Below, piece after piece: positions 19,768 through 46,966 of a DNA stretch of 60,308 nucleotides. The notes beneath the pieces are model-generated. The model saw only the letters and a program-made list of their open reading frames with translations, ran no database searches and had not been told where the DNA came from. The position numbers were made by a program, and so were the translations under genes. Origin of the DNA: a virus (taxonomy: Duplodnaviria; Heunggongvirae; Uroviricota; Caudoviricetes); the IMG/VR virus record IMGVR_UViG_2923339551_000004, one strand, 5' to 3'. Position 1 is the stretch's first letter, and each line of letters opens with the position of its first letter.

Positions 19768-20557
19768 TTACGCCAGTTGTACGGACACGAACTCATCAGG
19801 GTCAGCCAGCAGCATCAGCGGTGCTGACTGAATCATGGTGAACTCACGCGCCGGATCGCCGGTGGTCACCCAGTTTTTCGGGTAACGGGCAGAGGCGTTA
19901 ATGCCTTCGCGCTGTGCGTCCGCATCCTGAATGCAGCCATAGGTGCGCAGACCGCGTGCATGAGTGTTACCCAGCACCATCGTGTTGTCCGGCAGGAAGT
20001 TCTTTTTGACGCCGTTTTCCACGTACTGTCCGGAATACACGACGATGGCCACATCGCCATACATCCCCTTATAGGACACCGCTTTACCCAGGTCTTTCAC
20101 CGCTGTCTCCAGCTCGGAATGAGAGCCGCGACGGGTATCCAGCTTCTCCTTGACGGCGTTGAAGGAACGGAACAGCGCCCAGCCTTTCGGATCAAACACG
20201 ATGATATTCACCACGCCGCTGGCGTTCAGCGCGTAGGCTTCGATATCGTCGGTCGGGTCATACGTGGACTTGTCACGCTTGCTCCACTCCGTGCCGCCGG
20301 ACTGCGTGATGTTGTTCGCCGCACTGCGGCCCATATCCACCTCAACCGGATCGAAGGCTTCACCGGTCATGGTGTATTTGCCCTTGAGCACGGCAGAAAC
20401 TGCCTGCATCTCTTCGACCTGAGCAATGGCCAGCTCTTCGTCACGCATGTTCTGCAGGATGATGCGACGGCGGCGGTAAGCCGGGTCCGCCAGATTCTGC
20501 GGATCTTCATCCGGCAGGCGACGCAGGGTCATCTGCGGATTCACTTCATGCTTGGGT
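19768..20557 (-). pseudogene. E: major capsid protein E, C-terminal fragment (codons ~83 to end) separated from its 5' part by the satellite insertion
   Basis: Translation ...PKHEVNPQMTLRRLPDEDPQNLADPAYRRRR... to ...EFVSVQLA matches lambda E from residue ~80; in-frame stop immediately upstream at the junction. Confidence 0.9.
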
Positions 20558-20712
20558 TACATGAGTCAATCCCGAAAGAACTATTTGATTTCACTTAGCT
20601 TTGTGGTTTATATATCTACGCAACTCCTATCACTGCAATACTTTCTGCAATACAGATATGTGTAGTGAGGACTTGTCTAAAAACCATATTCACGAAGAAA
20701 AAGGATGACACG

Positions 20713-21876
20713 ATGCAACCAGAAGATTATGAAGAAAAGCAATACGAGGATGAGCCAGAATCCTATCCAATTGATGAGTTTCAACTTACTACTACGCCCA
20801 ATGATTTTAATATAATCACAATTATAAGTTTTATTAAATCAAAAGTTTTTAAAATCCCTAACTTTCAAAGGCATTATGTTTGGGATATCAAACGAGCATC
20901 AAAACTCATTGAATCTCTTTTAATAGGCCTTCCTATACCTCAAATATTTTTATATGAACAAGATAAAAATGAATTTTTAGTGATAGATGGTCAGCAGAGA
21001 TTAATGACCCTTTATTACTTTGTAAATGGTGTATTCCCTAGAAAAGAGAAACGTTCTGAACTGAGAAAAATCTTTGAAGATAATGGAAACATTCCAGAAA
21101 ACATTCTTCACAATGATGAATACTTCACAAAGTTCAACCTAAAACTTGATGGTCTATCAGACACCCAAAAAAACAAGTTTAATGGGAAAAACTATGAAAC
21201 ATTAAACGAATTTCAAACCACTTTAAATCTGGCAACCATACGAAATATGGTAATCAAACCGGTTGCACAAGATTCGGAAGATGGTGCAATGTTTGAAATA
21301 TTTAACCGCCTAAATAGTGGGGGAATGAACCTTTCTCCTCAAGAAATTCGTATGAGTTTATATCACTCAGACTTTCTTTCAAATCTTGTTTCATTGAATG
21401 AAAACAAGACATGGAGAAAAATTCTTTCAAAAAATGTTGTTGACATGCGATTGAGTGATATTGAAGCGATATTGCGCACATTTGCTATGTCCCTTTTTAC
21501 ATCTCAATACAAAAGCTCAGTTAGCGGTTTTTTGAACAATTTCTCAAATTATGCAAAAAACTACGACACTAAAGACATAATTTTATTTAGTAATATATGG
21601 AATGAATTTATGGATAGTGTTGATGGAATTGATGAAATCAATTTCAGAACTGGTGGGAATCGTATGAGTATAACTTTATTTGAGTCAATTTTTTATGCTG
21701 CAACTTATGACTCATTTAAAGATAAAGATCTAAAAATAAGACAAGTGACGGTGAATTACATCGATAAGCTTAAAAATGATCCTGAATTTCTGACATTTAG
21801 TACTGATAAAACAACAAGAAGAGAGCATGTAATTGGACGTCTAGAACGTGCAAGAACAATTTTGGAGGGAATGTAA
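20713..21876 (+). CDS. DUF262 (ParB-like nuclease/NTPase fold, GmrSD N-terminal-domain-like) protein
   Basis: Motif FLVIDGQQRLMTLYYF (DGQQR signature of DUF262); AT-rich; start at ATG 20713 with RBS aaggatga (track ORF begins 20665). Confidence 0.7.
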   Translation: MQPEDYEEKQYEDEPESYPIDEFQLTTTPNDFNIITIISFIKSKVFKIPNFQRHYVWDIKRASKLIESLLIGLPIPQIFLYEQDKNEFLVIDGQQRLMTLYYFVNGVFPRKEKRSELRKIFEDNGNIPENILHNDEYFTKFNLKLDGLSDTQKNKFNGKNYETLNEFQTTLNLATIRNMVIKPVAQDSEDGAMFEIFNRLNSGGMNLSPQEIRMSLYHSDFLSNLVSLNENKTWRKILSKNVVDMRLSDIEAILRTFAMSLFTSQYKSSVSGFLNNFSNYAKNYDTKDIILFSNIWNEFMDSVDGIDEINFRTGGNRMSITLFESIFYAATYDSFKDKDLKIRQVTVNYIDKLKNDPEFLTFSTDKTTRREHVIGRLERARTILEGM

Positions 21877-21880
21877 AATA

Positions 21881-22429
21881 ATGGAGGATATGGGATATAC
21901 TTCTATTGAAAGTATGTTTAATAACTATAAGTGTTATTATGATTTTCTTCTAACTCATAATGAGATTAGTTTTGCTAATGATTACAAATCACAATTTTCA
22001 AAAGTAATGCTATTAGCATGTGCTAGCTATTTTGAAACTTTAGTTGTAACTAAGATACATTGTATGCTTAACCCAAGCCAATGTAATCTTACACACGATT
22101 TTATCGATAATAAGGCCCTAACCAGGCAGTATCATACACTCTTTGATTGGAAAAAAAGGAATGCAAACCAGTTTTTTTCCTTTTTTGGCCCAAAATTTAA
22201 AGAGTTTATGATTGAGAAGGTAAAATCAAGCACAGAGTTGACCAAGTCTATCTCTGATTTTATGGAAATCGGAGAGCTAAGAAATAAATTAGCACATAAT
22301 AATTATGCTACTTTTGTATTAGAAAGCACAGCTGAAGAGATTTATAATAAATTTTTAAATGCACATTCATTTGTCTCTCAACTAGATACGTTCAGTACAC
22401 AGTTTAGAGAGCAAATTGGTGAACAGTAA
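21881..22429 (+). CDS. hypothetical protein, possible HEPN-like partner of the DUF262 gene
   Basis: Start ATG 21881 preceded by ggaggga, 5 nt after the DUF262 stop; C-terminal motif ELRNKLAHNNY fits the Rx4H HEPN pattern; motif-level evidence only. Confidence 0.45.
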   Translation: MEDMGYTSIESMFNNYKCYYDFLLTHNEISFANDYKSQFSKVMLLACASYFETLVVTKIHCMLNPSQCNLTHDFIDNKALTRQYHTLFDWKKRNANQFFSFFGPKFKEFMIEKVKSSTELTKSISDFMEIGELRNKLAHNNYATFVLESTAEEIYNKFLNAHSFVSQLDTFSTQFREQIGEQ

Positions 22430-22466
22430 TAGTTTATCTCCAGCAAAAAAATAACTTGCAAATAAT

Positions 22467-22493
22467 AAAAGCGGTCGCGTGACCGCTTTTTTC
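22467..22493. terminator. bidirectional intrinsic terminator between convergent genes
   Basis: aaaagcggtcgcgtgaccgctttttt: hairpin flanked by an A-run and a T-run. Confidence 0.7.
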
Positions 22494-22687
22494 TATTTAT
22501 CATTGCTATTTTCCTTTATTATTTCAGCAATTGACATAACTAAGGCGTCTGCTTTATTTCTAGTCCTATCAAACATATCTCTAATTACATCAATATAATA
22601 ATGTTCCTCAAAAATATTTACGTATGACAAAAGTATTGCACAACTCTTGCCCAAAATGTCAGCCAGTTGATCTTTGTTGACTTCCAT
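22493..22687 (-). CDS. small ORF with a Nu1-like N-terminus (first ~15 aa) fused to unrelated AT-rich sequence
   Basis: MEVNKDQLADILGKS... versus helper Nu1 MEVNKKQLADIFGAS...; sits next to the satellite cos. Confidence 0.4.
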   Translation of the reverse strand: MEVNKDQLADILGKSCAILLSYVNIFEEHYYIDVIRDMFDRTRNKADALVMSIAEIIKENSNDK

Positions 22688-22699
22688 TGTTCATTCCAC

Positions 22700-22920
22700 G
22701 GACAAAAACAGAGAAAGGAAACGACAGAGGCCAAAATGCCCGTTTTCAGCGCCTGTCATTTCCTTTCTTTTCAGGGGGTATTTTAAATAAAAACATAAAG
22801 TTACGGCGAAGAAGAACGGAAATGCCTTAAACCGGAAAATTTCCATAAATAGAGAAAAACTGCGCGCCTGACGCCCCGTAGCCTGTCAGATCGCCGGAAA
22901 GGACCCGCCAGCCAGAGCGG
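22700..22920 (-). other. satellite cos region: lambda-like terminase-binding segment with a divergent cosN
   Basis: ~85-90% identity by eye to helper cos 38060..38290 over the terminase-binding segment; the cosN-equivalent 12-mer (22865..22876, cgcctgacgccc) differs from the helper (aggtcgccgccc) at 5 positions. Confidence 0.75.
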
Positions 22921-22932
22921 GCCCTAATTTCA

Positions 22933-23316
22933 TCAACCAATCAGCTTATAGCGACCATCCCGTGCATTGCGGCGTACACGCTCAATCTTGAGGCATAGCG
23001 CCGCATCTGGCTTTTTTGGGACAGGTACGCGGCAATATTCAGAAGCGCGAGGAATATTATTTATCCAGTCGATCACTTCACTTAAATACCAGGCCTTACG
23101 CCCTTCCGTAACCTGCACACGCTCCGGGAACTCTCCACTAGCCTCAAGGTTTAGCAGTGTACGCCGACTCAGGGTTGTAATTTCCATCACCTGATTCATA
23201 TCAACAAGGCGCTCGCTTAAACACATTTTGTCAGCGATAGCTTTTAATTCCTCTACAGCTGGATTCGGGTACATCATTTCGGCAATTGGCTTAAGGTCAT
23301 TGTAATCATTCTGCAT
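22933..23316 (-). CDS. AlpA-like HTH DNA-binding protein
   Basis: Central segment MEITTLSRRTLLNLEASGEFPERVQVTEGRKAWYLSEVIDWI resembles AlpA/Xis-type HTH; start uncertain. Confidence 0.55.
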   Translation of the reverse strand: MQNDYNDLKPIAEMMYPNPAVEELKAIADKMCLSERLVDMNQVMEITTLSRRTLLNLEASGEFPERVQVTEGRKAWYLSEVIDWINNIPRASEYCRVPVPKKPDAALCLKIERVRRNARDGRYKLIG

Positions 23317-23327
23317 TGTATCCCCCT

Positions 23328-23669
23328 TTACACACGAGCCAGCGGCTGAACAGAAATACCTGAGCCAACAAACGCGGCAACCTTTGCCGACAGTTCTCTT
23401 ACAGACTCAGGCCAGTTCAGAGCATCAACATTTAAAACACCTGTCTTATAAACCTGTGCCTGTGTTTTTTTCGCTGTGTCGATTTGTACAGCGGAAACAT
23501 AAACCGCTTTGCCTGCGCTCGTTCCATCCCATACCACTAGCGCACCAGTTGCATCTTCCTGCATCAGTGGCGTAAACGCAGGTATTACCCCTTTATTGGC
23601 TGAAAATATCCCCAGCGTAGTAACCAGTGCTTCAGTGCCAGACATGAGTTCAGTGTAATGAGTAGCCAT
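23328..23669 (-). CDS. head decoration protein D homolog (divergent), satellite-encoded
   Basis: 113 aa; recognisable similarity to lambda D (VVWDGTSAGKAV versus [13 protein letters not shown]), far more diverged than the helper D at 32164..32496. Confidence 0.7.
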   Translation of the reverse strand: MATHYTELMSGTEALVTTLGIFSANKGVIPAFTPLMQEDATGALVVWDGTSAGKAVYVSAVQIDTAKKTQAQVYKTGVLNVDALNWPESVRELSAKVAAFVGSGISVQPLARV

Positions 23670-23678
23670 TGCTCCCCC

Positions 23679-24719
23679 TTAGCCAATGCGAACGGTAACA
23701 AAACGATTGATGCGGGCCGGTATTGGCTGTGGTGCTGAATGTGTCTGCACATATTCAATAGCCGGATCACCAGGCACAATATAGTTTTTCGGTGCAAGTT
23801 CGGCTTTAGTCAGCCCCATTCGGATTAGCTCCGGATCCTGAATACCGCCATAGGCGACAATCCCCTGAAGAGCCGTATTGCCAAGCACCATCAAATCAGG
23901 ATCAAGGAAATGTTTTTCAGTTCCGTCCTCGTCGGTATAACGCCCGCTGTATACAACAATCGCAACATCGCCCATATACCCTTTAAAACTCACCGAATCA
24001 CCAAGGTCTTTAAGGGCCGTTTCCAGTTCGGAATTAGAACCACGACGGGTATCCAGAGCCTCTTTTATCGCTCTGAATGAACGGTATTTCTTCCATACAT
24101 TACCGCCCATAATGATGATATTAGTGACGCCCTCACTAAATTCTGCGTAGCTCTCAATATCATCATTTGGATCAAAAGTTTCTTTATCCTTACCTGACCA
24201 CTCAGCACCGCCAGACTGAGTGATGATATTTTGTGGTTTAATATTCCAGTCCAGCTCATAACGTTCAATACCATCGCCCTCAATGATATTTTTCCCCGTT
24301 GTGATTGCCTGAACGGCAAGCCATTCAATACGTGCACGAATAGCTTTAGCCTGATTTACAATCGCCTGTTTAACTTTAATATTACGCGCTCCAAAAGCAT
24401 TGTATTGCTCAGGTGATACACCAGCAGGGCGCACAGCTAACTTATTTGGATCAATGCTGCTTTTCGGCTTCATATAGCCTGGACGAATTGTTTTTGATTC
24501 GTACCCTTCGTCACGTGAAACTTTACTACCCACCATAGGAGAACAAAACGCTGCAATTGGGATATTTGGATCGTCGATTGTATCAAGAATAATATCGCGC
24601 GATTCAAACATTACCGAGCGAGTAAAAAACAAACTGGTAAACAACGCATTTAGTTGTTTTTGTACATCTACAGCATTAACCACCTGTACAAGCTGGGTAG
24701 GCGAATATAAATCAACCAT
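23679..24719 (-). CDS. major capsid protein E homolog (divergent), satellite-encoded
   Basis: About half the positions shared with lambda E over the C-terminal part (TRRGSNSELETALKDLG, GDVAIVVYSG); start at ATG 24719 with aagagg RBS (track ORF begins 24893). Confidence 0.8.
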   Translation of the reverse strand: MVDLYSPTQLVQVVNAVDVQKQLNALFTSLFFTRSVMFESRDIILDTIDDPNIPIAAFCSPMVGSKVSRDEGYESKTIRPGYMKPKSSIDPNKLAVRPAGVSPEQYNAFGARNIKVKQAIVNQAKAIRARIEWLAVQAITTGKNIIEGDGIERYELDWNIKPQNIITQSGGAEWSGKDKETFDPNDDIESYAEFSEGVTNIIIMGGNVWKKYRSFRAIKEALDTRRGSNSELETALKDLGDSVSFKGYMGDVAIVVYSGRYTDEDGTEKHFLDPDLMVLGNTALQGIVAYGGIQDPELIRMGLTKAELAPKNYIVPGDPAIEYVQTHSAPQPIPARINRFVTVRIG

Positions 24720-24936
24720 ACGCATCCTCTTTGCATTCATTAAAAATAATTGTGGATATATGCTATCACCGATATTTGTCATGCGAATACATGCAACCGA
24801 GTGCAATGTTGTATAAAGTTTTGGGATGACAACTTCAGCACGGATAATTAGTGTTAATATCTTCACTCCCTTTGGTCTGGATTTATGTAGCATGCCGGAA
24901 AATTTATTTTTTTCCGGCCTTTTTTATTGGCAATAT

Positions 24937-25386
24937 TTAAAGCGGAATATCATCTCCCCATTGCTCATTATCTCCCACTGGTGGATGGCTTCCTTGCTGA
25001 TCTGCCTGTTGTTTTGCTCTGTTCAGTGCGTCAGTAGCCTGCCCCTGTTGGCCTTTTTTGCCGCCCGGTCGCACCGATCGCGCACTGATTACGCTGTCTG
25101 CGATAACCTGCCAGCCCTGCCGCGTTTCACCGTTCTGTCCAGTCCACTGGCTCACCTGCATATTACCCGCCACGCTCAGGAGTTCGCCTTTGTGATGCTT
25201 TGCCAGCGTGTCGGCTTGTCTGCCAAACGCCAGCACAGATAACCACATCGTCGCCGTTCCGTCATCTGCCTGGCTGCATGGCAAAGATACCGCCATCCAT
25301 GCCAGTGTCATGGGTGTTCCCTTGCTGGTATGTTTTACCTGTGGGTCGTCCACCAGCCGCCCGTAAGCTGCTATTTGCGCCGTCAT
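24937..25386 (-). CDS. single-stranded DNA-binding protein-like (SSB-like)
   Basis: 149 aa; OB-fold-like N-terminus, Gly/Gln-rich tail and terminal DDIPL resembling the SSB C-terminal DDDIPF. Confidence 0.6.
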   Translation of the reverse strand: MTAQIAAYGRLVDDPQVKHTSKGTPMTLAWMAVSLPCSQADDGTATMWLSVLAFGRQADTLAKHHKGELLSVAGNMQVSQWTGQNGETRQGWQVIADSVISARSVRPGGKKGQQGQATDALNRAKQQADQQGSHPPVGDNEQWGDDIPL

Positions 25387-25397
25387 GCTGCCTGCTC

Positions 25398-25640
25398 TCA
25401 GGACTTAATATTGATGGTTGTCACTTCCTCCGCTTCGGCAATCTCCCGTTCGGTCAGCGTGGCAAAGTTTGCAGCCGCCGTTGTCATGAATGCGCTTATC
25501 AGTTCGGGATGTGCTTTCGCGTATCCTTCCCCGGCGTTGCGGTCTATTGCCTTAATCGCCACCCTTAGCCAGTGTTCAGCCATATCAAGGGCGCGGTAAT
25601 GTGGCTTTATATGTTTGTTCAGTTTTCCTGATGTGTGCAT
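25398..25640 (-). CDS. hypothetical protein
   Basis: 80 aa ORF between the origin and the SSB-like gene. Confidence 0.4.
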   Translation of the reverse strand: MHTSGKLNKHIKPHYRALDMAEHWLRVAIKAIDRNAGEGYAKAHPELISAFMTTAAANFATLTEREIAEAEEVTTINIKS

Positions 25641-25685
25641 TTTTATTTTTACCCCCTCGTTTAAAAAGTTTTTTGTGCACCACCA

Positions 25686-25918
25686 CCTTGTCTACCTTGT
25701 CTACCTGATTAGTTATCAGGCCAGTAATGGCGCGGGTTTCAGGGAGGTAGACAGCCCCAAATAGCTGTCTACCTCATCTCTACCCGTCTCCTTACCTGTC
25801 TACAAAAATGGGTAGATAAGGTAGATAACAGGTAGACAGTGAAAAATAGTTATCTACCTGCATTAATACATTGAAATAAAAGTATTTTATTTCAGTCAGG
25901 TAGACAAGGTAGATAACC
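25686..25918. repeat. iteron array, putative satellite replication origin
   Basis: At least 11 copies of GGTAGA(C/T)A / T(A/G)TCTACC in both orientations, irregularly spaced, immediately 3' of the primase/helicase gene. Confidence 0.75.
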
Positions 25919-25929
25919 ATTGCCATTTT

Positions 25930-27681
25930 TTATAAAAACGCATCGCAATCATCAGTAGTCGTTGCGTTGGTCTGCGTGACTCCCTTAACTTTTCGAGTAA
26001 TATATTCATATCCGTAAACTTTCGCCGCTGACCTCATAGCCTTTCCGAACTCATTCACGCTCAAACATTTCCCCTTTCCTGTATATGCCATGAAGGCCAT
26101 ATAGACACGGTAAAGGCTGTTTCTGGTCGTGTACTTCACGGTGTCACCACCACCGCCCATCATTAGCCCACGAGCTTCCTCCAGAAACTCCAGCGCCGCG
26201 CAAAGCTCAACAACCGGATCCGTTTGCTGCTTTATTGCCAGAGCTTCATCACCGTCACGCTGTTCCAGTAATAAAGCCCGTGCCTTTTCAGGGTCAGCAA
26301 AATTAGCCAGCAAGCGGCGGATAATTACGGGGATTTCTGCCGCTATCTTTTCCGGTAATTCCTTGTCTTTTTCGTCCTCCCTTACAATGTTGTCGAACCG
26401 GAAAATCACCCGACGGCGTGACACACCTCCGGCCCGTTCGGTAAAGATCATCGGGTCGTTATTGGTTGCCAGTACCACCGCCCTTATTATCGTCGTGAAT
26501 CGCTTCTCATATTTCGGGTTAATTTCAACGGGATCGCCTCCCGTGATTTTCTTGATGCCCGTGCCTTCCCCCGTATATTTCGGCTGATCGGCAAGGACGA
26601 TAAGACGACTCCCGACAACCTGCGCACGCCCTCCTGCATCATCGAGTGATGTCATCTCTGCGCTTACGGTGTTCTGTTTGCCAGCAAGCAGGGTGGCAAT
26701 ATGGGTAAATGTACTCTTACCGCTTCCCCCGTCTCCGGTGGCCTCAATGAACATCTGCCAGTCGTACCGGTTCGCCATAATCATGTACAGCGCGGCACAT
26801 ATACGCATCATCTTGCGCGGGTCTTTTCCGGCTGCGTGCTCAAGCCATTTATGAAAGTTTGGCGCGTTATCGCGGATGTTCTCCCCTGGTGCTGGTGGCG
26901 TGTACTCAATGCCGTTGTGCGTGGTGATCCAGTTCTCCGGCGTGTGCGGGGAAAATTCCCCCGTTTTCAGGTCAAGCGCACCATTGGCGAACGGCAGCAA
27001 ATCGCCGGACGGCTCGCCCATTGGTTCGGCAATAACTTTTAACGCTTCAACGGCGTTATTGATCACGCGTTTGCTGAAAGTGGCCCTGTGCTCTGAATAG
27101 ATCGCCACCATTTCGCGGCTCAGCTCCATTGTGCTGATCGGACACCATACCCCGCCGCGCCATACGTGAACGATTTCACTTTCCGGATGCACACAAACGC
27201 CATCAAAGCGCTCGGCAAGCAGCTGCGCGCGCTCACTGTCTGCCATCTGTGAAAGTTGCGCCTTTTGCTTCGTCGGAAGATTAAGCACCAGGCTTTCCCC
27301 ACGCTCGCATTCCTCTTTGAGTCGCGGCAACTGGTCGGATAAATCCACTGGGCTGGTGTCAGTAATCCCCGCGTATTCGTGTACGGTCTTCACTCCAGCC
27401 ACAGCCAGTAACGTAACAATCTGCGTCATGCTGTGCTCTGTGATATGTCCTGCGCGGTAAACACGCACACACTGACGATCTTCATCAATGATCCGGTAAT
27501 CGGTGATGTTTTTCAGTTGCTCATCAGCCAACACGACAGGCGGCACATCGTCGGCGGCAATATGTTTACCCGCCCATTCCTGCCACTCTTTCGCATGGCT
27601 CCACGCATCACTACCTGCAAAGATGATTATCTCTGTCAGTCTGTCGCGTGGCTGTTTTTTTAAGTTCGGTGCCAGTTTCAT
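25930..27681 (-). CDS. replication protein: primase/helicase (P4 alpha / D5-like SF3 helicase family)
   Basis: 583 aa; Walker A EATGDGGSGKSTF; sits next to the iterons. Confidence 0.75.
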   Translation of the reverse strand: MKLAPNLKKQPRDRLTEIIIFAGSDAWSHAKEWQEWAGKHIAADDVPPVVLADEQLKNITDYRIIDEDRQCVRVYRAGHITEHSMTQIVTLLAVAGVKTVHEYAGITDTSPVDLSDQLPRLKEECERGESLVLNLPTKQKAQLSQMADSERAQLLAERFDGVCVHPESEIVHVWRGGVWCPISTMELSREMVAIYSEHRATFSKRVINNAVEALKVIAEPMGEPSGDLLPFANGALDLKTGEFSPHTPENWITTHNGIEYTPPAPGENIRDNAPNFHKWLEHAAGKDPRKMMRICAALYMIMANRYDWQMFIEATGDGGSGKSTFTHIATLLAGKQNTVSAEMTSLDDAGGRAQVVGSRLIVLADQPKYTGEGTGIKKITGGDPVEINPKYEKRFTTIIRAVVLATNNDPMIFTERAGGVSRRRVIFRFDNIVREDEKDKELPEKIAAEIPVIIRRLLANFADPEKARALLLEQRDGDEALAIKQQTDPVVELCAALEFLEEARGLMMGGGGDTVKYTTRNSLYRVYMAFMAYTGKGKCLSVNEFGKAMRSAAKVYGYEYITRKVKGVTQTNATTTDDCDAFL

Positions 27682-27977
27682 TTTTTGCCCCTGAATGCGT
27701 TAATCATGCTTTTCATTTTCTGGATGTTTCCCCGCGCTTTTTCCCTGCTGATGGGCTTACTACGGGGTGCGGCATATACCAGGGAAAAATCACGCCGGAA
27801 CTGATAAACAGGCATCACGCAGTCATAGCTATACCCCTCACGACGGTAAGTGATGCGCCGTTCTGCCACGCCTTTAATCGTTACCGTGCCGCCGTATTTA
27901 TCGCGGTAAATATCGCCGTTCATAAATTCAGGCCGAGCGGGGCCGCTGGCAATAAAGCCAGAATTTTTCATTTCCAT
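27678..27977 (-). CDS. hypothetical protein (replication-operon small ORF)
   Basis: 99 aa; stop overlaps the primase start (27678..27681). Confidence 0.45.
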   Translation of the reverse strand: MEMKNSGFIASGPARPEFMNGDIYRDKYGGTVTIKGVAERRITYRREGYSYDCVMPVYQFRRDFSLVYAAPRSKPISREKARGNIQKMKSMINAFRGKK

Positions 27978-27994
27978 ATTATTTATTCCTCGAC

Positions 27995-28216
27995 TTAACT
28001 CGACTTATTTGATAGCAGGGCACTATTTATTGCGTCATTGAGTTTTTCTGCTGCTTCATCAATAAGTGACAACAGGCCATAAGCAATATTTGCATCTTCA
28101 TTGTCATTTATGCAATCAAGCCACATATTTAATATTGCTTTTGCTGAATTATTTAAAGTTAATGAACTTTCTGCACATGCTAACAATTTAAAAAAGACTT
28201 CCCGTTCTGTATTCAT
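27995..28216 (-). CDS. hypothetical protein
   Basis: 73 aa ORF, AT-rich. Confidence 0.35.
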   Translation of the reverse strand: MNTEREVFFKLLACAESSLTLNNSAKAILNMWLDCINDNEDANIAYGLLSLIDEAAEKLNDAINSALLSNKSS

Positions 28217-28408
28217 TTAATCCCCCACCAGCTTACTTTCTTCCTCAATCAAAAAACTAGCGACACTTCCCGAAAGACGCGCCAGTAGGCTCGCCAGTGC
28301 GGATATATCAGCATCTGTAATTTTGTTCGGGTATACCTCAAGAAGGCGGCAAATAATTTCTGTCTGGTGCGCACGTTCAGCGGCTTCGTGTAATGTGATT
28401 TCCTGCAT
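28217..28408 (-). CDS. hypothetical protein
   Basis: 63 aa ORF abutting neighbours. Confidence 0.35.
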   Translation of the reverse strand: MQEITLHEAAERAHQTEIICRLLEVYPNKITDADISALASLLARLSGSVASFLIEEESKLVGD

Positions 28409-28593
28409 TAATGCACCTCTTTTAATTCATACACTGCTGAAATAATGACTTGTGATAAGCCATATTCTGATGATTCGCTTCTCACCGCAGCAATAGCCGT
28501 CTGAACATTAACAGCCTTCACATTCTGAGCGATACCAATTGTGTGGCCTATTGGGTTAACAGCTCGGGCAAATACACGGAAGGTTTTAAGCAT
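28408..28593 (-). CDS. hypothetical protein
   Basis: 61 aa ORF abutting neighbours. Confidence 0.35.
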   Translation of the reverse strand: MLKTFRVFARAVNPIGHTIGIAQNVKAVNVQTAIAAVRSESSEYGLSQVIISAVYELKEVH

Positions 28594-28787
28594 GACTCAC
28601 TCCCTGGCGGATTTTTGCAGCGAATACAGCAACACAACCGGACGGGCAACGGCTACGCGCTTCGCGTTCCGTCCAGGCGGTTACGTGGATGATTTGAGAT
28701 TCTCCGGCACTCAGTGCCAGAAAACGCCACACAAAGGCCGTTTGTGTGTGTACAAGGTGTGGTATATGATTTACAGCAACCATAACG
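28587..28787 (-). CDS. hypothetical protein, first gene of the leftward satellite operon
   Basis: 66 aa from ATG 28787 with aggag RBS; below the 60-aa track cutoff as a separate ORF because it is embedded in the spurious 28586..29317 frame. Confidence 0.4.
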
Positions 28788-28973
28788 GCTCCTAGTTTAC
28801 GTTGTTGGTTAGACGCCCCGTATGTGTTCCCAGCACTGCGGGGCGTTGCTCTTTGTATTTCAACAATCCTTTCGGTGTGTTTCATGTTATGAGCGCATGA
28901 AACACACGTCAAGGCTTTTTGTATTTCTTTTTTTGTGTATACTGAAACACACCGATGATTAGGAGTTTCAGAA

Positions 28974-29279
28974 ATGGCAACGGCTAACAAAAACGCAAAA
29001 TCACAACTGACAACTGTCAGAGTCCCACTAGATGTTATGCAAGGGATGGAATCCGTTAAGCTGGACGGTGAAAGCAATGCCGGATTTATCGTAACCGCCA
29101 TGCGCGGTGAAATCGCCCGCCGCCAGGCAGAAGGAAGCGGAGAAAATCCCCTCGTGTCTTCACTGGATGCCTTAGCTAAGGTCGAACAAATCGGCATCAA
29201 GGCAGCGGAGGAAATCGGGCAACTCGTAGCCGTCGCTCGTGAAGAACTCCAGCGGCGTAAAGCCAAAGAATCTGAATAA
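28974..29279 (+). CDS. hypothetical protein, divergently transcribed from the replication operon (possible regulator)
   Basis: 101 aa; RBS aggag upstream; divergent arrangement typical of a satellite control region. Confidence 0.45.
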   Translation: MATANKNAKSQLTTVRVPLDVMQGMESVKLDGESNAGFIVTAMRGEIARRQAEGSGENPLVSSLDALAKVEQIGIKAAEEIGQLVAVAREELQRRKAKESE

Positions 29280-29629
29280 TTAGTATCAGCGCCGTGATGT
29301 GAGTAACTACGGCGCATTGCTATGTAAATACTGGCAATAAACAGAAAAGGTAGTTCTACTCCGAATAATTTTATCTGACACTACTCCTGAACTAACATGC
29401 GCTTATCTTACAGGATATAAATATAAATCCATAAAATCACGATTAAATAAAGTCGCTCCAAACATAAACCACACCCAACGCTTAACAAGATAGCAACAAA
29501 CAGGTAAATAACTTGCAGAAATATTTATCGCAAGGATTATCATTATTAATGACAAATCACTTTACCAAGTCATTCCCCTCTCTTATCATAAAGAGAAAGT
29601 AATAAATAAGTTAAGGGAGTTAGAATGCT

Positions 29630-30166
29630 ATGAATCTAAAAAAAATAGCCACAAACACAAAAAACAAGATAACAGAAACATTTAATAAACTTATATTAGA
29701 GGCATCTAAAACCCCCACGCAAGATGAAATTAAAATACTTGAGAGAAGGAGTAAGAAGTTTAATTACTCCTTTTTCTCATACGCAGTCACAGGAGCTATA
29801 ATAGTTTTTTGCTCTCAACCATTAATTAAATACGCAAACCCAATACTTATTTTATTGAGTGGTCTGTTACTGTCTATCATCATTATCATTCTCAGAATGA
29901 TTTATATTTCACAAGCGAATGCATCATGGACAACCAAAAAACGCTCACATGTACTAGTTCATTTTCTTTCTGCATGTTTCATAGCATCAACATTGACGTT
30001 GCTATATCAGGCTTACGATAATAACATCACACACAAATTGTACTGTAAAAATATACAACAACTTATTGAAAAAAGGATAGAAACAGAAAAAAACATCAGC
30101 ATATTCAGTGGGATGCAATGCACCCCGGTATATGATTACTCTTTATTTGGATTTAATCTCTTATAA
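29630..30166 (+). CDS. AT-rich predicted membrane protein
   Basis: 178 aa; two strongly hydrophobic segments (AIIVFCSQPLI, ILILLSGLLLSIIIIILRMIYI); very low GC; aagggag RBS. Confidence 0.5.
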   Translation: MNLKKIATNTKNKITETFNKLILEASKTPTQDEIKILERRSKKFNYSFFSYAVTGAIIVFCSQPLIKYANPILILLSGLLLSIIIIILRMIYISQANASWTTKKRSHVLVHFLSACFIASTLTLLYQAYDNNITHKLYCKNIQQLIEKRIETEKNISIFSGMQCTPVYDYSLFGFNLL

Positions 30167-30235
30167 AGAATGTTATTACTGATTTGAGTACAAATTCTCA
30201 AATCAGTAATTCATAATATTTTATTCTGAGATAAT

Positions 30236-30472
30236 TTAAACTACCCACTCACCTCGAATCCATGCCTGCACTTCTGAAAGACGATATGCAACAGCAGTGG
30301 AACCAATCTTGATCCGCTTAGGAAATTTTCCTTCCTTCTCCAGCTTCCAGCGTGTGCTGTTCGCAAGAGTGGTTAGCTCCCGACATTCTTTCTCACGGAT
30401 CATTCGGTCAATGTTAGGAATGTACTCCAGACCCTTTTTATCAACAATTGCCATTTTTTTCATGTTAACCAA
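30236..30472 (-). CDS. alpA: AlpA-family transcriptional regulator / excisionase-like
   Basis: 78 aa, ...ELTTLANSTRWKLEKEGKFPKRIKIGSTAVAYRLSEVQAWI; directly downstream of the integrase. Confidence 0.7.
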   Translation of the reverse strand: MVNMKKMAIVDKKGLEYIPNIDRMIREKECRELTTLANSTRWKLEKEGKFPKRIKIGSTAVAYRLSEVQAWIRGEWVV

Positions 30473-31700
30473 CCTTTTGTTTGAGGATTGTCACTTTTGA
30501 ATCAGCACCTGCGATGCTATTGAGATATGTAGTCCAGAGTTCCAGAGCATCCAGTTTTTTAGCCATAAACTTACTCCGGTTGTAAACACCTGCCACGCCA
30601 GGTAGCGCATGGCCTAACAGTTGTTCTACTACATAAAATTCAACACCGAGATCACTTAGATGAGTAGATAGCGTTCTTCTAAGGTCGTGTAGTGACCATT
30701 GTTTTTCATGGCCCAAACGTTTACCGATTTTCCCCCCAATCTTGCTTACGCTTTCTCTAATTCGCAGACTTCCCAGCACATAACCAGTATGTTTTGTCTC
30801 TTCGTGAACATCCGTTACCCACTGTCGTAGAATTTCAGGTACTGGTCTGACGATTTCAACACCAGTTTTTGAGTGATCTTTTGGTACAGTCCAAACCCAA
30901 CTTTCGAGATCCCATTCGCTCCATTCTGATAATCGGGCTTCACTCATTCGACATCCAAATACTGTACAAAGCACAAACATTTTTCGCGTGTATTCAGACA
31001 TTAGTTTTAAATCAGGCTCGACAAAAATTGCCTTCCAGAGCTGGCCGAGTTCGGCTTCATCCAGAACCCGATCCCGCTTACCTGCAATCTGCCCCACATC
31101 ACTCATGCGCAAATCCTTTAAAGCATCACACGTCGCGTACTGGCGTACCCGACAAAAACGAAGAGCTAATTTAGTGTCAGAAAAAACATACGCCGCCATA
31201 ACTGGTGCATTACGTTTAATTCGGTCAAAACAGTCCAGCCATTCATATAGGTGAGTGTCATTTACGGGCAAATGACCGATATAGGGAAAGATATGCTTTC
31301 GAAATCTGCCAAGCGTTACAGCATGAGTTTTACGACGCACCTTACAGTAATTTTCATACCAGTAATTTAGTGCATCCTCCACTGTAACCGGCTTTAAGCG
31401 TTCTTCAGCCTGAATCTTAATCTGGATACGCGGATCACGTTTGTCAGCCAACCAACCACGGCACTCGTCGCGCTTTTCCCTTGCCTGTTTGAGTGACATA
31501 TCAGGATATTTACCCAACGTTAGCCAGACCGGAGCAGCCCGGCCACCTGCTAACCTGTAGAAGAAAACAAAGCTCACAGCCCCTTTAGTACTCACACGAA
31601 TAGAAAGCCCCTTTCCATCAGCAATGGTGATCTGCTTTTCTCTGGGTTTCCCCAGATATCCTTTAAGCGCTTTGTCGCTCAGTTTGTTCTCGCCAGCCAT
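30465..31700 (-). CDS. int: tyrosine recombinase / integrase (P4-type), satellite
   Basis: C-terminal catalytic region with HDLRRT and LLGH...Y motifs; start placed at MAGENKL (track ORF extends to 31751); adjacent to the att repeat. Confidence 0.85.
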   Translation of the reverse strand: MAGENKLSDKALKGYLGKPREKQITIADGKGLSIRVSTKGAVSFVFFYRLAGGRAAPVWLTLGKYPDMSLKQAREKRDECRGWLADKRDPRIQIKIQAEERLKPVTVEDALNYWYENYCKVRRKTHAVTLGRFRKHIFPYIGHLPVNDTHLYEWLDCFDRIKRNAPVMAAYVFSDTKLALRFCRVRQYATCDALKDLRMSDVGQIAGKRDRVLDEAELGQLWKAIFVEPDLKLMSEYTRKMFVLCTVFGCRMSEARLSEWSEWDLESWVWTVPKDHSKTGVEIVRPVPEILRQWVTDVHEETKHTGYVLGSLRIRESVSKIGGKIGKRLGHEKQWSLHDLRRTLSTHLSDLGVEFYVVEQLLGHALPGVAGVYNRSKFMAKKLDALELWTTYLNSIAGADSKVTILKQKVG

Positions 31701-31832
31701 TTTTAGCCCCAAAAAGCAATACAAGCTGCAATACAGAGATGATTGCAACACACAGATAACGAGGAAAATTCAGTGAAAGCACCAGATAAACTTATTCTTT
31801 ATTATCAAAAGATTAAGTGTAAAAACCAGCAA

Positions 31833-32108
31833 CTACACGAAAGCCTCAGAAAGCCATGCTAAGTGCTTGGGTTTGACATATCCCGGCGTAAATTCAGAGG
31901 TGGAGCCGCCACGGGAACGGATAACCTCACCGGAAACAATCGGCGAAACGTACAGCGCCATGTTTACCAGTCCCGGAATTTGTGAGAGATAGACTTTCTC
32001 CGTAGTGAAGGGATAGCTCTCACGGAAAAAGAGACGCAGAAACAGCGGATCAAACTTAAATTTCTGCTCATTTGCCGCCAGCAGCTGGGCGGTTGTGTAC
32101 ATCGACAT
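31833..32108 (-). pseudogene. E: major capsid protein E, N-terminal fragment (82 aa) fused to 9 satellite-encoded codons
   Basis: MSMYTTAQLLAANEQKFKFDPLFLRLFF...GYVKPKH then LAWLSEAFV and stop; breakpoint at the KPKH codons. Confidence 0.9.
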
Positions 32109-32163
32109 AAAAAAATCCCGTAAAAAAAGCCGCACAGGCGGCCTTTAGTGATGAAGGGTAAAG

Positions 32164-37532: not shown

Positions 37533-38052
37533 TCAGCAACCCCGGTATCAGTTCATCCAGCGCGGCTGCTTTGTTCATAGCTTTGATGATATCCCGTTTC
37601 AGGAAATCAACATGTCGGTTTTCCAGTTCCGGAAAACGCCGCTGCACCGACAGGGGGATCCCGTCGAGAATACTGGCAATTTCACCTGCGATCCGCGACA
37701 GCACGAAAGTACAGAATGCGGTTTCCACCACTTCAGCTGAGTCTCTGGCATTCTTCAGTTCCTGTGCGTCGGCCTGCGCACGCGTAAGTCGATGGCGTTC
37801 GTACTCAATAGTCCCTGGCTGCAGATCTGTCTCGCTGGCCTGCCGCAGTTCTTCAACTTCCCGGCGCAGCTTTTCGTTCTCAATTTCAGCATCCCTTTCG
37901 GCATACCATTTTATAACGGCGGCAGAGTCATAAAGCACCTCATTACCCTTGCCACCGCCTCGCAGAACGGGCATTCCCTGTTCCTGCCAGTTCTGAATGG
38001 TACGGATACTCGCACCGAAAATGTCAGCCAGCTGCTTTTTGTTGACTTCCAT
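37507..38052 (-). CDS. Nu1: terminase small subunit Nu1
   Basis: 181 aa, MEVNKKQLADIFGASIRTIQNWQEQGMPV. Confidence 0.95.
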
Positions 38053-38149
38053 TGTTCATTCCACGGCCAAAAACAGAGAAAGGAAACGACAAAGGCCCAA
38101 AAGTTCGTTTTCAGCACCTGTCGTTTCCTTTCTTTTCAGGGGTTATTTT

Positions 38150-38290
38150 AAATAAAAACATTAAGTTACGACGAAGAAGAACGGAAACACCTTAAACCGG
38201 AAAATTTTCATAAATAGCAAAAACCCGCGAGGTCGCCGCCCCGTAACCTGTCGGATCGCCGGAAAGGACCCGTAAAGTGATAATGATTAT
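38150..38290 (-). other. cos: helper prophage cos site, with the 12-nt cohesive-end sequence at 38230..38241
   Basis: aggtcgccgccc is the reverse complement of the lambda cohesive end GGGCGGCGACCT; flanked by cgtaacctgtc (lambda right end). Confidence 0.9.
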
Positions 38291-45081: not shown

Positions 45082-45372
45082 TCATCTTTTAACTCCATAT
45101 ACCGCCAATACCCGTTTCATCGCGGCACTCTGGCGACACTCCTTAAAAATCAGGTTCGTGCTCATCTTTCCTTCCCGTTCTTCCTTGGTAGCAAACCGGT
45201 AATACACCGTTCGCCAGACCTTACCTTCGATAACCAGAAGACCTGCCCGTGCCATTTTAGCCGCGGCCTGATTTATGCTGGTTACTGTTGCGCCTGTTAG
45301 CGCGGCAACGTCCGGCGCACAGAAGCTATTATGCGTCCCCAGGTAATGAATAATTGCCTCTTTGCCCGTCAT
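45082..45372 (-). CDS. ren: Ren
   Basis: 96 aa, MTGKEAIIHYLGTHNSFCAPDVAALTGATV... Confidence 0.95.
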   Translation of the reverse strand: MTGKEAIIHYLGTHNSFCAPDVAALTGATVTSINQAAAKMARAGLLVIEGKVWRTVYYRFATKEEREGKMSTNLIFKECRQSAAMKRVLAVYGVKR

Positions 45373-46070
45373 ACACTTGCTCCTTTCAGTCCGAACTTAG
45401 CTTTGATTTCTGCGATCTTCGCCAGAGCCTGTGCACGATTTAGAGGTCTACCGCCCATGACAGGAAGTTGTTTTACTGGTTCAGGGATCGCCTCACCACG
45501 GTTAATTCTCGCAGTCATATGGACAAGCTCATCTGCGGCCTTACGGCGTAATTCCGCATCAGTAAGCGCATTGGCCCGCATGTTCTGATACAGGTTGGTA
45601 ACCAGCCAGTAGTGCGCGTTTGATTTCCACGGATAAGACTCCGCATCCGGATACAGGCCTCGCTTCCGGCAATACTCGTAAACCATATCAACCAGCTCGC
45701 TGACGTTTGGCAGTCCGGCGATAACGGATGCTTCTTCCCGGCACCATGCAACAAACTGCCCGGGTGATGGCAGAAATGGTCGATTCTGCCGACGGGCTAC
45801 GCGCATTCCTGCGTTAACCTGTTCCATTGTGGTGATCCCGTTTTCCCGGAAAGCCAGCACCCACTGGCGGCGGATTTCGTTCAGTTCGTTCTGGTCCCGG
45901 TTAGCCAGGCTCGCCGGGAAAGTTGCCAGTAACTGGCTGAACACACCATTGATGATCTGCGCTACCTGTTGTACCTGCGGCTTTTCGTCGTACTGTTCCG
46001 GCATGTTGTTGGCGATCCGACGCATCTGCTCACGGTCAAAGTTAACCATCTGTGCGGCGATGTTTTTCAT
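45369..46070 (-). CDS. P: replication protein P (helicase loader)
   Basis: 233 aa, lambda P. Confidence 0.95.
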   Translation of the reverse strand: MKNIAAQMVNFDREQMRRIANNMPEQYDEKPQVQQVAQIINGVFSQLLATFPASLANRDQNELNEIRRQWVLAFRENGITTMEQVNAGMRVARRQNRPFLPSPGQFVAWCREEASVIAGLPNVSELVDMVYEYCRKRGLYPDAESYPWKSNAHYWLVTNLYQNMRANALTDAELRRKAADELVHMTARINRGEAIPEPVKQLPVMGGRPLNRAQALAKIAEIKAKFGLKGASV

Positions 46071-46966
46071 AAATCCACCCCGTAAATCCAGTCAGTGTTT
46101 GTCAGGTCGAGTTTTGGTTTGCTGGCTGTCACGCCTGCCTGTTGCTTGTTACGGTTGATTTCGAGCTGGGTCCACTTGTCGCGGAGTTTGGCCGGACTCA
46201 GCACGTTACCGGACCAGAAGTTGTCCTGGCAGGCCCAGCGGAAAAGCACACACATATCGCGGTGGTTACGTCCGTCACGTTCACGCATCAGGCGGATATC
46301 GTTAGCCCACCCAGCAAAATTCGGTTTTCTGGCTGATGGTGCGATAGTCTTCACCATGTCAAACATCCACTCTGCGGCGGTCAGGTCTTCTGCTGTCCCC
46401 CACTTGCTGCCGCTCTGAATTGCAGCATCCGGTTTAACCACAGAAAGATCGTTTTCTGGCTGGTCAGAGGATTCGCCAGAATTCTCTGACGAATAATCTT
46501 TTCTTTTTTCTTTTGTAATAGTGTCTTTTGTGTCCCCCTGTTTTGAGGGATAGCAATCCCCCAATTTGAGGGATGTTTTATCCCTCGTTTTAGGGGATTG
46601 TCCCTCGTTTTGAGGGATACACCATTCTGAGATGTTTTTATTTGGTCCAAACATGCCGCCTTGCTGCTTGATAATATTCATTCTGACGAGTTCTAACTTG
46701 GCTTCATTGCACCGTTTGACAGGTAACTTTGTAATCTCGCTAAGTTGAGAATCGGTGATTCTGTCCATTGGTTTATTCCACCCATAGGTTTTACGCAGAA
46801 TGGCAAGCAGCACTTTAAACTGTCGCTTGGTCAGATCTGCGCCCGAATAAGCCTCAAGCAGCATATTTGATAGTCTGGCGTAACCATCATCGAGATCTGC
46901 CACATTACGCTCCTGTCCGGCAAAGTTACCTCTGCCGAAGTTGAGTATTTTTGCTGTATTTGTCAT
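46067..46966 (-). CDS. O: replication initiator O
   Basis: 299 aa, lambda O; contains the ori iterons. Confidence 0.95.
   Translation of the reverse strand: MTNTAKILNFGRGNFAGQERNVADLDDGYARLSNMLLEAYSGADLTKRQFKVLLAILRKTYGWNKPMDRITDSQLSEITKLPVKRCNEAKLELVRMNIIKQQGGMFGPNKNISEWCIPQNEGQSPKTRDKTSLKLGDCYPSKQGDTKDTITKEKRKDYSSENSGESSDQPENDLSVVKPDAAIQSGSKWGTAEDLTAAEWMFDMVKTIAPSARKPNFAGWANDIRLMRERDGRNHRDMCVLFRWACQDNFWSGNVLSPAKLRDKWTQLEINRNKQQAGVTASKPKLDLTNTDWIYGVDL
46480..46640. promoter_or_regulatory. ori: ori-lambda inside O: four iterons plus AT-rich region
   Basis: Four tccctcaaaacgaggga-type repeats at 46541..46640 and an adjacent A/T-rich tract at 46480..46540. Confidence 0.9.

Follow-up and report, generated by a model that had tools for sequence, protein, structure and literature searches.

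The probable replication module of a satellite inserted in the capsid gene of a lambdoid prophage

The stretch of viral DNA analysed here (60,308 bp, IMG/VR record IMGVR_UViG_2923339551_000004; below, the window) carries a dense array of short repeats between the gene of a protein annotated as 'DNA primase family protein' (Pri) and a small ORF. This raises the question of whether the repeats are an origin of replication and, if so, to which element this origin belongs: the island on which the repeats lie or the helper prophage in which the island is inserted. The reading that we favor, with a probability of about 0.85, is that the region belongs to the replication module of a helper-embedded phage-inducible chromosomal island (HE-PICI) of the '11capE' type and comprises its origin and accessory genes. 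It rests on repeat statistics, on domain homologies, on colinearity with a validated origin and on the way the iterons track the C-terminal domain of Pri. A module made of an initiator helicase, a repeat-rich origin, a small ORF and an SSB is already known and is ordinary for such satellites, and since its colinear homologue in EcCICFT073 was tested experimentally, the module described here belongs to a described and tested kind. The coordinates of its parts and of their surroundings are collected in Table 1.

Table 1. Positions in the window of the island, its replication module and the helper features discussed in the text
Feature	Position	Strand	Remarks
Helper capsid gene, two halves	19768-20544, 31833-32135	minus	lambda-E type, split by the island
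Island	~20549-31873		11.3 kb
10-bp direct repeat	20549-20558, 31864-31873		TGCTTGGGTT
cos-like segment, 258 bp	22650-22907		helper copy at 38015-38272
Second AlpA-family HTH protein, 127 aa	22933-23316	minus	downstream of satellite capsid and decoration genes
Satellite major capsid (Phage_cap_E) and D-type head decoration genes	23328-24893	minus
ssb, 149 aa	24937-25386	minus	OB fold aa 5-99, short linker, tip GDDIPL; Pfam, TIGR, phrog and PDB matches
ORF80, 80 aa	25398-25640	minus	small conserved protein; phrog_1231, unknown function
ORF80 leader	25641-25688	minus	Shine-Dalgarno GAGGGGG; nearly invariant in window, EcCICFT073 and Shigella L003
ori (probable), iteron array	25689-25915	.	consensus RGGTAGAYAR
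Plus-strand iterons	25746, 25811, 25820, 25831, 25899, 25908	plus
Minus-strand iterons	25689, 25698, 25766, 25777, 25795, 25851	minus	25777, GGTAGAGA; 25795, degenerate TGTAGACA
AT-rich tract, 40 bp	~25859-25898	.	22.5% G+C; presumed DNA-unwinding element
pri, 583 aa	25930-27681	minus	replication initiator, P4 alpha-like SF3 helicase; annotated 'DNA primase family protein'
C-terminal winged-helix origin-binding domain, Pri aa 487-578	25948-26223	minus	1ka8 match; aligns with alpha 671-762
D5_N and SF3 helicase core, Pri aa 137-470	26272-27273	minus	Walker A TGDGGSGKS, aa 315-323
N-terminal domain, Pri aa 1-135	27277-27681	minus	in the place of alpha's primase; weakly TOPRIM-like fold
AlpA-type regulator	30236-30472	minus
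int	30465-31751	minus	integrase, by Pfam domains
Helper P	45369-46070
Helper O	46067-46966

The island and its repeat array

The island, which has a 10-bp direct repeat at its two ends, interrupts a capsid gene of the helper, the two halves of which are co-oriented; in RefSeq copies identical to the stretch, both halves are annotated as partial or pseudogene major capsid genes of a lambdoid prophage. The int, alpA and pri genes run in one direction on an island with att repeats, as they do in Gram-negative PICIs, which are islands of 10-20 kb, and the minus-strand genes of the island also include an Icd-like gene. Over 258 bp, the island shares 88.8% identity with a helper segment located upstream of the terminase genes, and this segment of the island presumably represents the cos site of the satellite. 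Since this segment lies elsewhere on the island, the array was not taken for a packaging site. A megablast search against the phage collection gave no match, nor did an Rfam scan of the island at gathering thresholds. At one end of the satellite, a pair of plus-strand cargo genes (20665-22429) encodes a DUF262/GmrSD_N protein (PADLOC NsnA, 199 bits; PD-T4-2_A, 130 bits) and a RiboL-PSP HEPN protein (weak match to PD-T4-2_B), and this pair has the look of a system for anti-phage defence. An IS2 element separates the pair from the att site in strain MSHS 133.

The sequence GGTAGAYA occurs ten times in the window, five times on each strand, and all ten copies are located in the array; in 100 dinucleotide shuffles the mean count was 1.74 and the maximum was 5, with no shuffle reaching ten. 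The 6-bp core GGTAGA has 15 copies, 11 of them inside the same 227 bp (25689-25915) and four elsewhere in the 60 kb. The eleventh copy of the core is GGTAGAGA (25777-25784, minus strand), and a twelfth, degenerate copy, TGTAGACA (25795-25802, minus strand), was read off the sequence. The preliminary description counted at least 11 repeats in both orientations, and this count is correct because the stretch contains 11 GGTAGA cores and a degenerate twelfth copy; its placement of the array between the 583-aa and the 80-aa ORFs is borne out by the ORF coordinates. The iterons form tandem pairs with 9-bp spacing (25689/25698, 25811/25820 and 25899/25908) as well as inverted pairs. The array begins 15 bp past the stop codon of pri, which places the origin directly 3' of the initiator gene, and no second iteron cluster was found in the window, where matches with one mismatch outside the array occur at the chance level.

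The AT-rich tract separates the pri-proximal iteron pair (25899-25915) from the nine or ten other copies. It is placed alike in related loci from Shigella (L003), Serratia (L004) and Morganella (L005) and in the Klebsiella satellite vB_KppS-Ant (L008), and an AT-rich tract in this placement was described for E. coli PICIs (PMC6092414, Fig. 2a legend). The window, EcCICFT073 and Shigella L003 also have in common a conserved, G+C-rich spacer between iterons (25707-25745, CTGAAA..CGCGCCATTACTGGC) that is not itself an iteron. Two other candidates in this region were set aside. A 44-aa ORF (25792-25926) was treated as spurious, as it lies wholly within the repeats and is unannotated in the RefSeq copies; and one DnaA-box-like 9-mer with one mismatch, together with one IHF-like site, was given no weight as a sign of an origin driven by DnaA and IHF.

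Pri and the question of its primase activity

The assignment of Pri as an initiator comes from its domains. It matches the Pfam families D5_N (residues 152-281), DUF5906 (315-416) and, weakly, Pox_D5 (517-575), scores 104.9 bits against TIGR01613, slightly below the cut-off of 108.7, and is 41% identical over residues 137-578 to residues 321-762 of P4 alpha. The GGSGKS part of its Walker A motif is invariant in the alignment of Pri relatives, and Pri also matches the structure of the SaPI5 primase-helicase (7ola). Its residues 487-578 match PDB 1ka8 (phmmer, E 2.3e-7), a 100-residue chain deposited as 'putative P4-specific DNA primase', which we take to be the origin-binding winged-helix domain of P4 alpha. 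The helicase and origin-binding domains of what had been called a primase/helicase are clear, and that name is thus borne out by half, since a catalytic primase domain was not found.

The start codon of pri is overlapped by a DUF4222 gene (27678-27977, minus strand; 83 bits against Pfam DUF4222), and this position is also occupied in EcCICFT073. In P4, the corresponding place immediately ahead of alpha is taken by ORF106, which is annotated DUF5375; ORF106 is presumably cnr, the copy-number regulator of P4, and by analogy the product of the DUF4222 gene may possibly regulate replication.

In P4 alpha, the zinc-finger and TOPRIM primase region occupies residues 1 to ~300 and carries the EGYATA and DxD motifs. 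Nothing in Pri aligns with residues 1-320 of alpha, and a profile-profile comparison (hhalign) of the N-terminal domain of Pri with the P4-type primase region was negative (probability 0.2%). The first ~135 residues of Pri match no Pfam family, a lenient scan giving just DUF4332 with an E of 0.048, and a profile search of the PDB returned nothing below E 0.09 for this domain. The AlphaFold model of the domain, built from a 19-sequence alignment, has a pLDDT of 88.5; its top Foldseek match in the PDB is the RNA-polymerase domain of DnaG, yet with an E of 0.04, and its matches to TOPRIM and primase proteins in BFVD are weak. TOPRIM enzymes have the catalytic Glu at the end of strand 1 and the DxD motif at the end of strand 3. 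The corresponding strands of the Pri domain end in F-A-G and A-G-H, with no acidic residue at the expected catalytic positions, and E17 is the sole invariant or nearly invariant acidic residue in the alignment of the family. We infer, with moderate confidence, that the domain is TOPRIM-like but degenerate and unlikely to polymerise primers. Because Pri is devoid of the TOPRIM primase of alpha, the primers most likely come from host DnaG or from an activity of the N-terminal domain that has escaped recognition. A 'DNA primase' gene without a recognisable primase active site also means that models of satellite copy number and helper dependence should not assume self-priming. Helicases of the D5_N/'primase C_term' kind are often mis-annotated as primases though they lack a primase domain (PMC10061031).

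The family of the N-terminal domain comprises 84 clusters (at 50% identity) among 1.8 billion representatives, and its members are fused to four types of helicases: D5_N/DUF5906, DUF927, VapE-like and AAA_25 (P0128, P0129, P0132 and P0155). The Morganella homologue L005 does carry a zinc-finger/TOPRIM primase region of the alpha type. One may speculate, though we consider it rather doubtful, that the domain is a catalytically dead, TOPRIM-derived adaptor that was shuffled onto at least four unrelated helicase scaffolds, in which case these 'primases' of enterobacterial satellites would be non-primases. Priming would then be outsourced, for example to host DnaG, perhaps through the N-terminal domain itself or through the tip of the satellite SSB. 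A link between the SSB and the N-terminal domain, by which the former would make up for the missing primase and accompany the latter, found no support, as the Serratia and Klebsiella loci have a Pri with this domain and no downstream SSB.

ORF80 and the SSB

The small ORF next to the array has no Pfam or NCBIfam family, phrog_1231 being the sole family found. Its 163 homologues, all annotated 'hypothetical' or 'prophage protein', come from Escherichia, Shigella and Citrobacter only. Counterparts are present in EcCICFT073 and Shigella L003. The AF2 model is a two-helix hairpin of low confidence (pLDDT 70).

The next gene was proposed in the preliminary description to encode an SSB-like protein ending in DDIPL, and the profile searches agree: the product scores 54.9 bits against Pfam PF00436 (cut-off 26) and 61.5 bits against TIGR00621 (cut-off 53.95), and also matches phrog_44 and 24 solved SSB structures. 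Its identity to E. coli SSB across the OB fold is 26%, and W48, F54 and W81 align with W54, F60 and W88 of the E. coli protein, which are three of its four ssDNA-contacting aromatic residues. Leu49 aligns with E. coli His55, a residue with a role at the tetramer interface. The tip is a variant one. Of the 120 representatives of the family, 113 have a terminal F (in DNIPF, DDIPF, DGIPF or DEIPF) and not one has a terminal L; the last codon, at 24940-24942, is CTT (Leu) versus TTT (Phe), a change of one base. As 113 of the 120 relatives and the SSB of EcCICFT073 end in F, DDIPL represents a single-base variant. The terminal Phe of E. coli SSB docks into partner proteins, and by analogy the change from Phe to Leu may weaken partner binding. 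The related Pri-ori modules of the Serratia and Klebsiella loci contain no SSB, which marks this protein as accessory to the module and not as one of its defining components. A strong hairpin with a T-run after it (24894-24918), located between the minus-strand genes of the SSB and the satellite capsid protein, was scored as a plus-strand terminator; as an A-run precedes the hairpin when it is read on the minus strand, it may work bidirectionally.

Probable origin function and comparison with known systems

An argument for an origin comes from EcCICFT073. In a sensitive search, the 289-bp intergenic region that contains the array is present in 566 of 5,426 complete E. coli genomes, and the match in strain CFT073 (75% identity over 98% of the length) is located in EcCICFT073. 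The gene order DUF4222-pri-ori-small ORF-ssb-capsid-decoration is the same in both elements, the small ORF of EcCICFT073 having 85 aa. The two origins are colinear and share the GGTAGA-core iterons and the AT-rich tract, ORF80 is 80% identical and the SSB is 75% identical. The differences are that EcCICFT073 is integrated next to phoQ and not in a helper capsid gene, that its SSB has 136 aa and ends in DDIPF as opposed to 149 aa and DDIPL, and that the window has no PerC gene after ssb and has one more degenerate iteron. At the restrictive temperature, a temperature-sensitive plasmid that carries the pri-ori fragment of EcCICFT073 is maintained in E. coli, and this requires pri as well as ori (Fillol-Salom et al. 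2018, PMC6092414). The module had initially been called a self-contained replicon. It is indeed the satellite's own, while its self-sufficiency rests on the homologue and not on the element in the window.

Pri has ~2,500 homologues, and the search for related loci in genome contigs yielded four loci. The Pri of Shigella L003 is 79% identical to that of the window, and when the origins of these two are aligned with that of EcCICFT073, eleven iteron cores do not vary, in contrast to the spacers, which have diverged. Iterons of the GGTAGAYA type are found in the window, in Shigella L003 and in CFT073, those of the GTGAACA type in P4, in the Serratia and Morganella loci and in the Klebsiella satellite, and those of the AAAAGTGCAA type in Serratia phage Scapp. 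The fetched relatives that have an array after pri show the same layout, and the type of the iteron shifts together with the C-terminal domain. Judged from sequence, this covariation, seen in few groups and with two specificities, is the pattern expected if the domain reads the iterons. The record of Pasteurella Pmp8 shows no clear iterons after pri, and an integrase-like region is found there instead.

Three other explanations were weighed, and each is unlikely. The one that merits some weight is that the module is intact but idle, and that the element is copied passively by the O/P-driven replicon of the helper. The weight comes from 11capE, in which composite replication precedes satellite excision upon induction and two of three induction repeats gave an attP:attB ratio close to 1 after excision (PMC10111431), so that autonomous replication may be weak; the F-to-L change at the SSB tip points in the same direction. 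However, one repeat gave a ratio of 1.6-1.9 (PMC10111431), all ORFs are open, the iteron cores are invariant relative to CFT073 while the spacers diverge, as expected of functional sites, and the 2.8-kb module is present, at a coverage of at least 80%, in 251 of the 5,426 complete E. coli genomes. It is still less probable that the array is only an enhancer similar to crr of P4 and that initiation takes place in another part of the island, at a further cluster of iterons. The array does sit where crr sits in P4, 3' of alpha, and the P4 record has a separate ori 4.5 kb from crr, but the 60-kb window holds no second cluster (the array contains all 10 exact copies and 11 of the 15 cores), the array has an AT-rich tract of its own, and the pri-ori fragment of EcCICFT073 replicates alone (PMC6092414). 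Equally improbable is the view that the repeats are mainly operators controlling transcription of orf80, ssb and the capsid genes and form no origin: the start codon of ORF80 is 48 bp past the end of the last iteron pair, its leader is conserved and no terminator-like site was found on the minus strand between pri and ORF80, but a consensus scan gave no promoter-like site in the array, no DNA-binding domain other than the origin-binding domain of Pri has a homologous target, the twelve sites around an AT-rich tract fit the architecture of an origin, and deletion of the origin lowers the replication of EcCICFT073 (PMC6092414). A dual role of the array, as origin and operator, is possible.

With the array taken as the origin of the satellite, we infer the following course for binding, melting, loading, the role of the SSB and the route of priming. 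Pri would bind the RGGTAGAYAR iterons via its C-terminal winged-helix domain. Once Pri occupies the iterons that flank the AT-rich tract, the tract would melt and the SF3 hexamer of Pri would be loaded. The satellite SSB would coat the exposed strands, its acidic tip recruiting replisome proteins of the host, and DNA would be synthesized by host Pol III from primers made probably by DnaG, or else by the N-terminal domain of Pri.

Compared with known systems, the module shares with O/P/ori-lambda of the helper the principle of an iteron-bearing, AT-rich origin and an element-encoded initiator. The two are otherwise distinct, as had been claimed at the outset: O and P are unrelated to Pri, and the four ~18-bp iterons of the helper lie inside its O gene, ~20 kb from the array, and are unrelated in sequence to GGTAGAYA. 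The helicase that the lambda P protein recruits is host DnaB; Pri, by contrast, is a helicase itself. The Pri-Rep-ori modules of SaPIs, which are Gram-positive PICIs, have a helicase core of the same family, and their origins lie 3' of the initiator gene with iterons around an AT-rich tract (PMC6092414). The match to the SaPI5 structure 7ola is, however, confined to the helicase core (Pri residues 194-441 against 405-652 of a 797-residue chain), the first ~400 residues of that chain are unmatched in Pri, and the iterons are unrelated.

P4 is closer. Its alpha protein combines an SF3 helicase with a winged-helix origin-binding domain, as Pri does, and its crr, which is required in cis, lies directly 3' of alpha; the 8-bp type-1 repeats of crr are found in either orientation and include pairs spaced by 9 bp. 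The type-1 repeat GGTGAACA and the repeat of the window, GGTAGACA, have six of eight bases in common. The differences are the single iteron cluster of the window as opposed to the separate ori and crr of P4, the absence of the zinc-finger/TOPRIM region of alpha from Pri, and the SSB, which P4 does not encode. The iteron can thus be viewed as a variant of the P4 type-1 repeat, differing at two of eight positions and tracking the winged-helix domain, which makes these satellites a compact system for studying the evolution of initiator specificity, and the latter bears on incompatibility between co-resident satellites.

As a whole element, the island corresponds in its features to the description that Tommasini, Mageeney and Williams gave in 2023 of HE-PICI Eco567.11capE from E. 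coli NRG857c (CP001855; PMC10111431). Both are ~11 kb long, are inserted in and co-oriented with the capsid gene E of a lambdoid prophage, have a 10-bp att identity block and E and D homologues of their own, and share with the helper a 258-bp cos-like segment (~89% identity here, 90% in PMC10111431). The paper places primase, SSB and DUF5906 proteins of such islands in a 'Replication' category and does not describe the iterons and the domains of Pri (PMC10111431). The module analysed here confirms the picture of a helper-embedded satellite with an alpha-type replicon of its own, a configuration published in 2018 and 2023.
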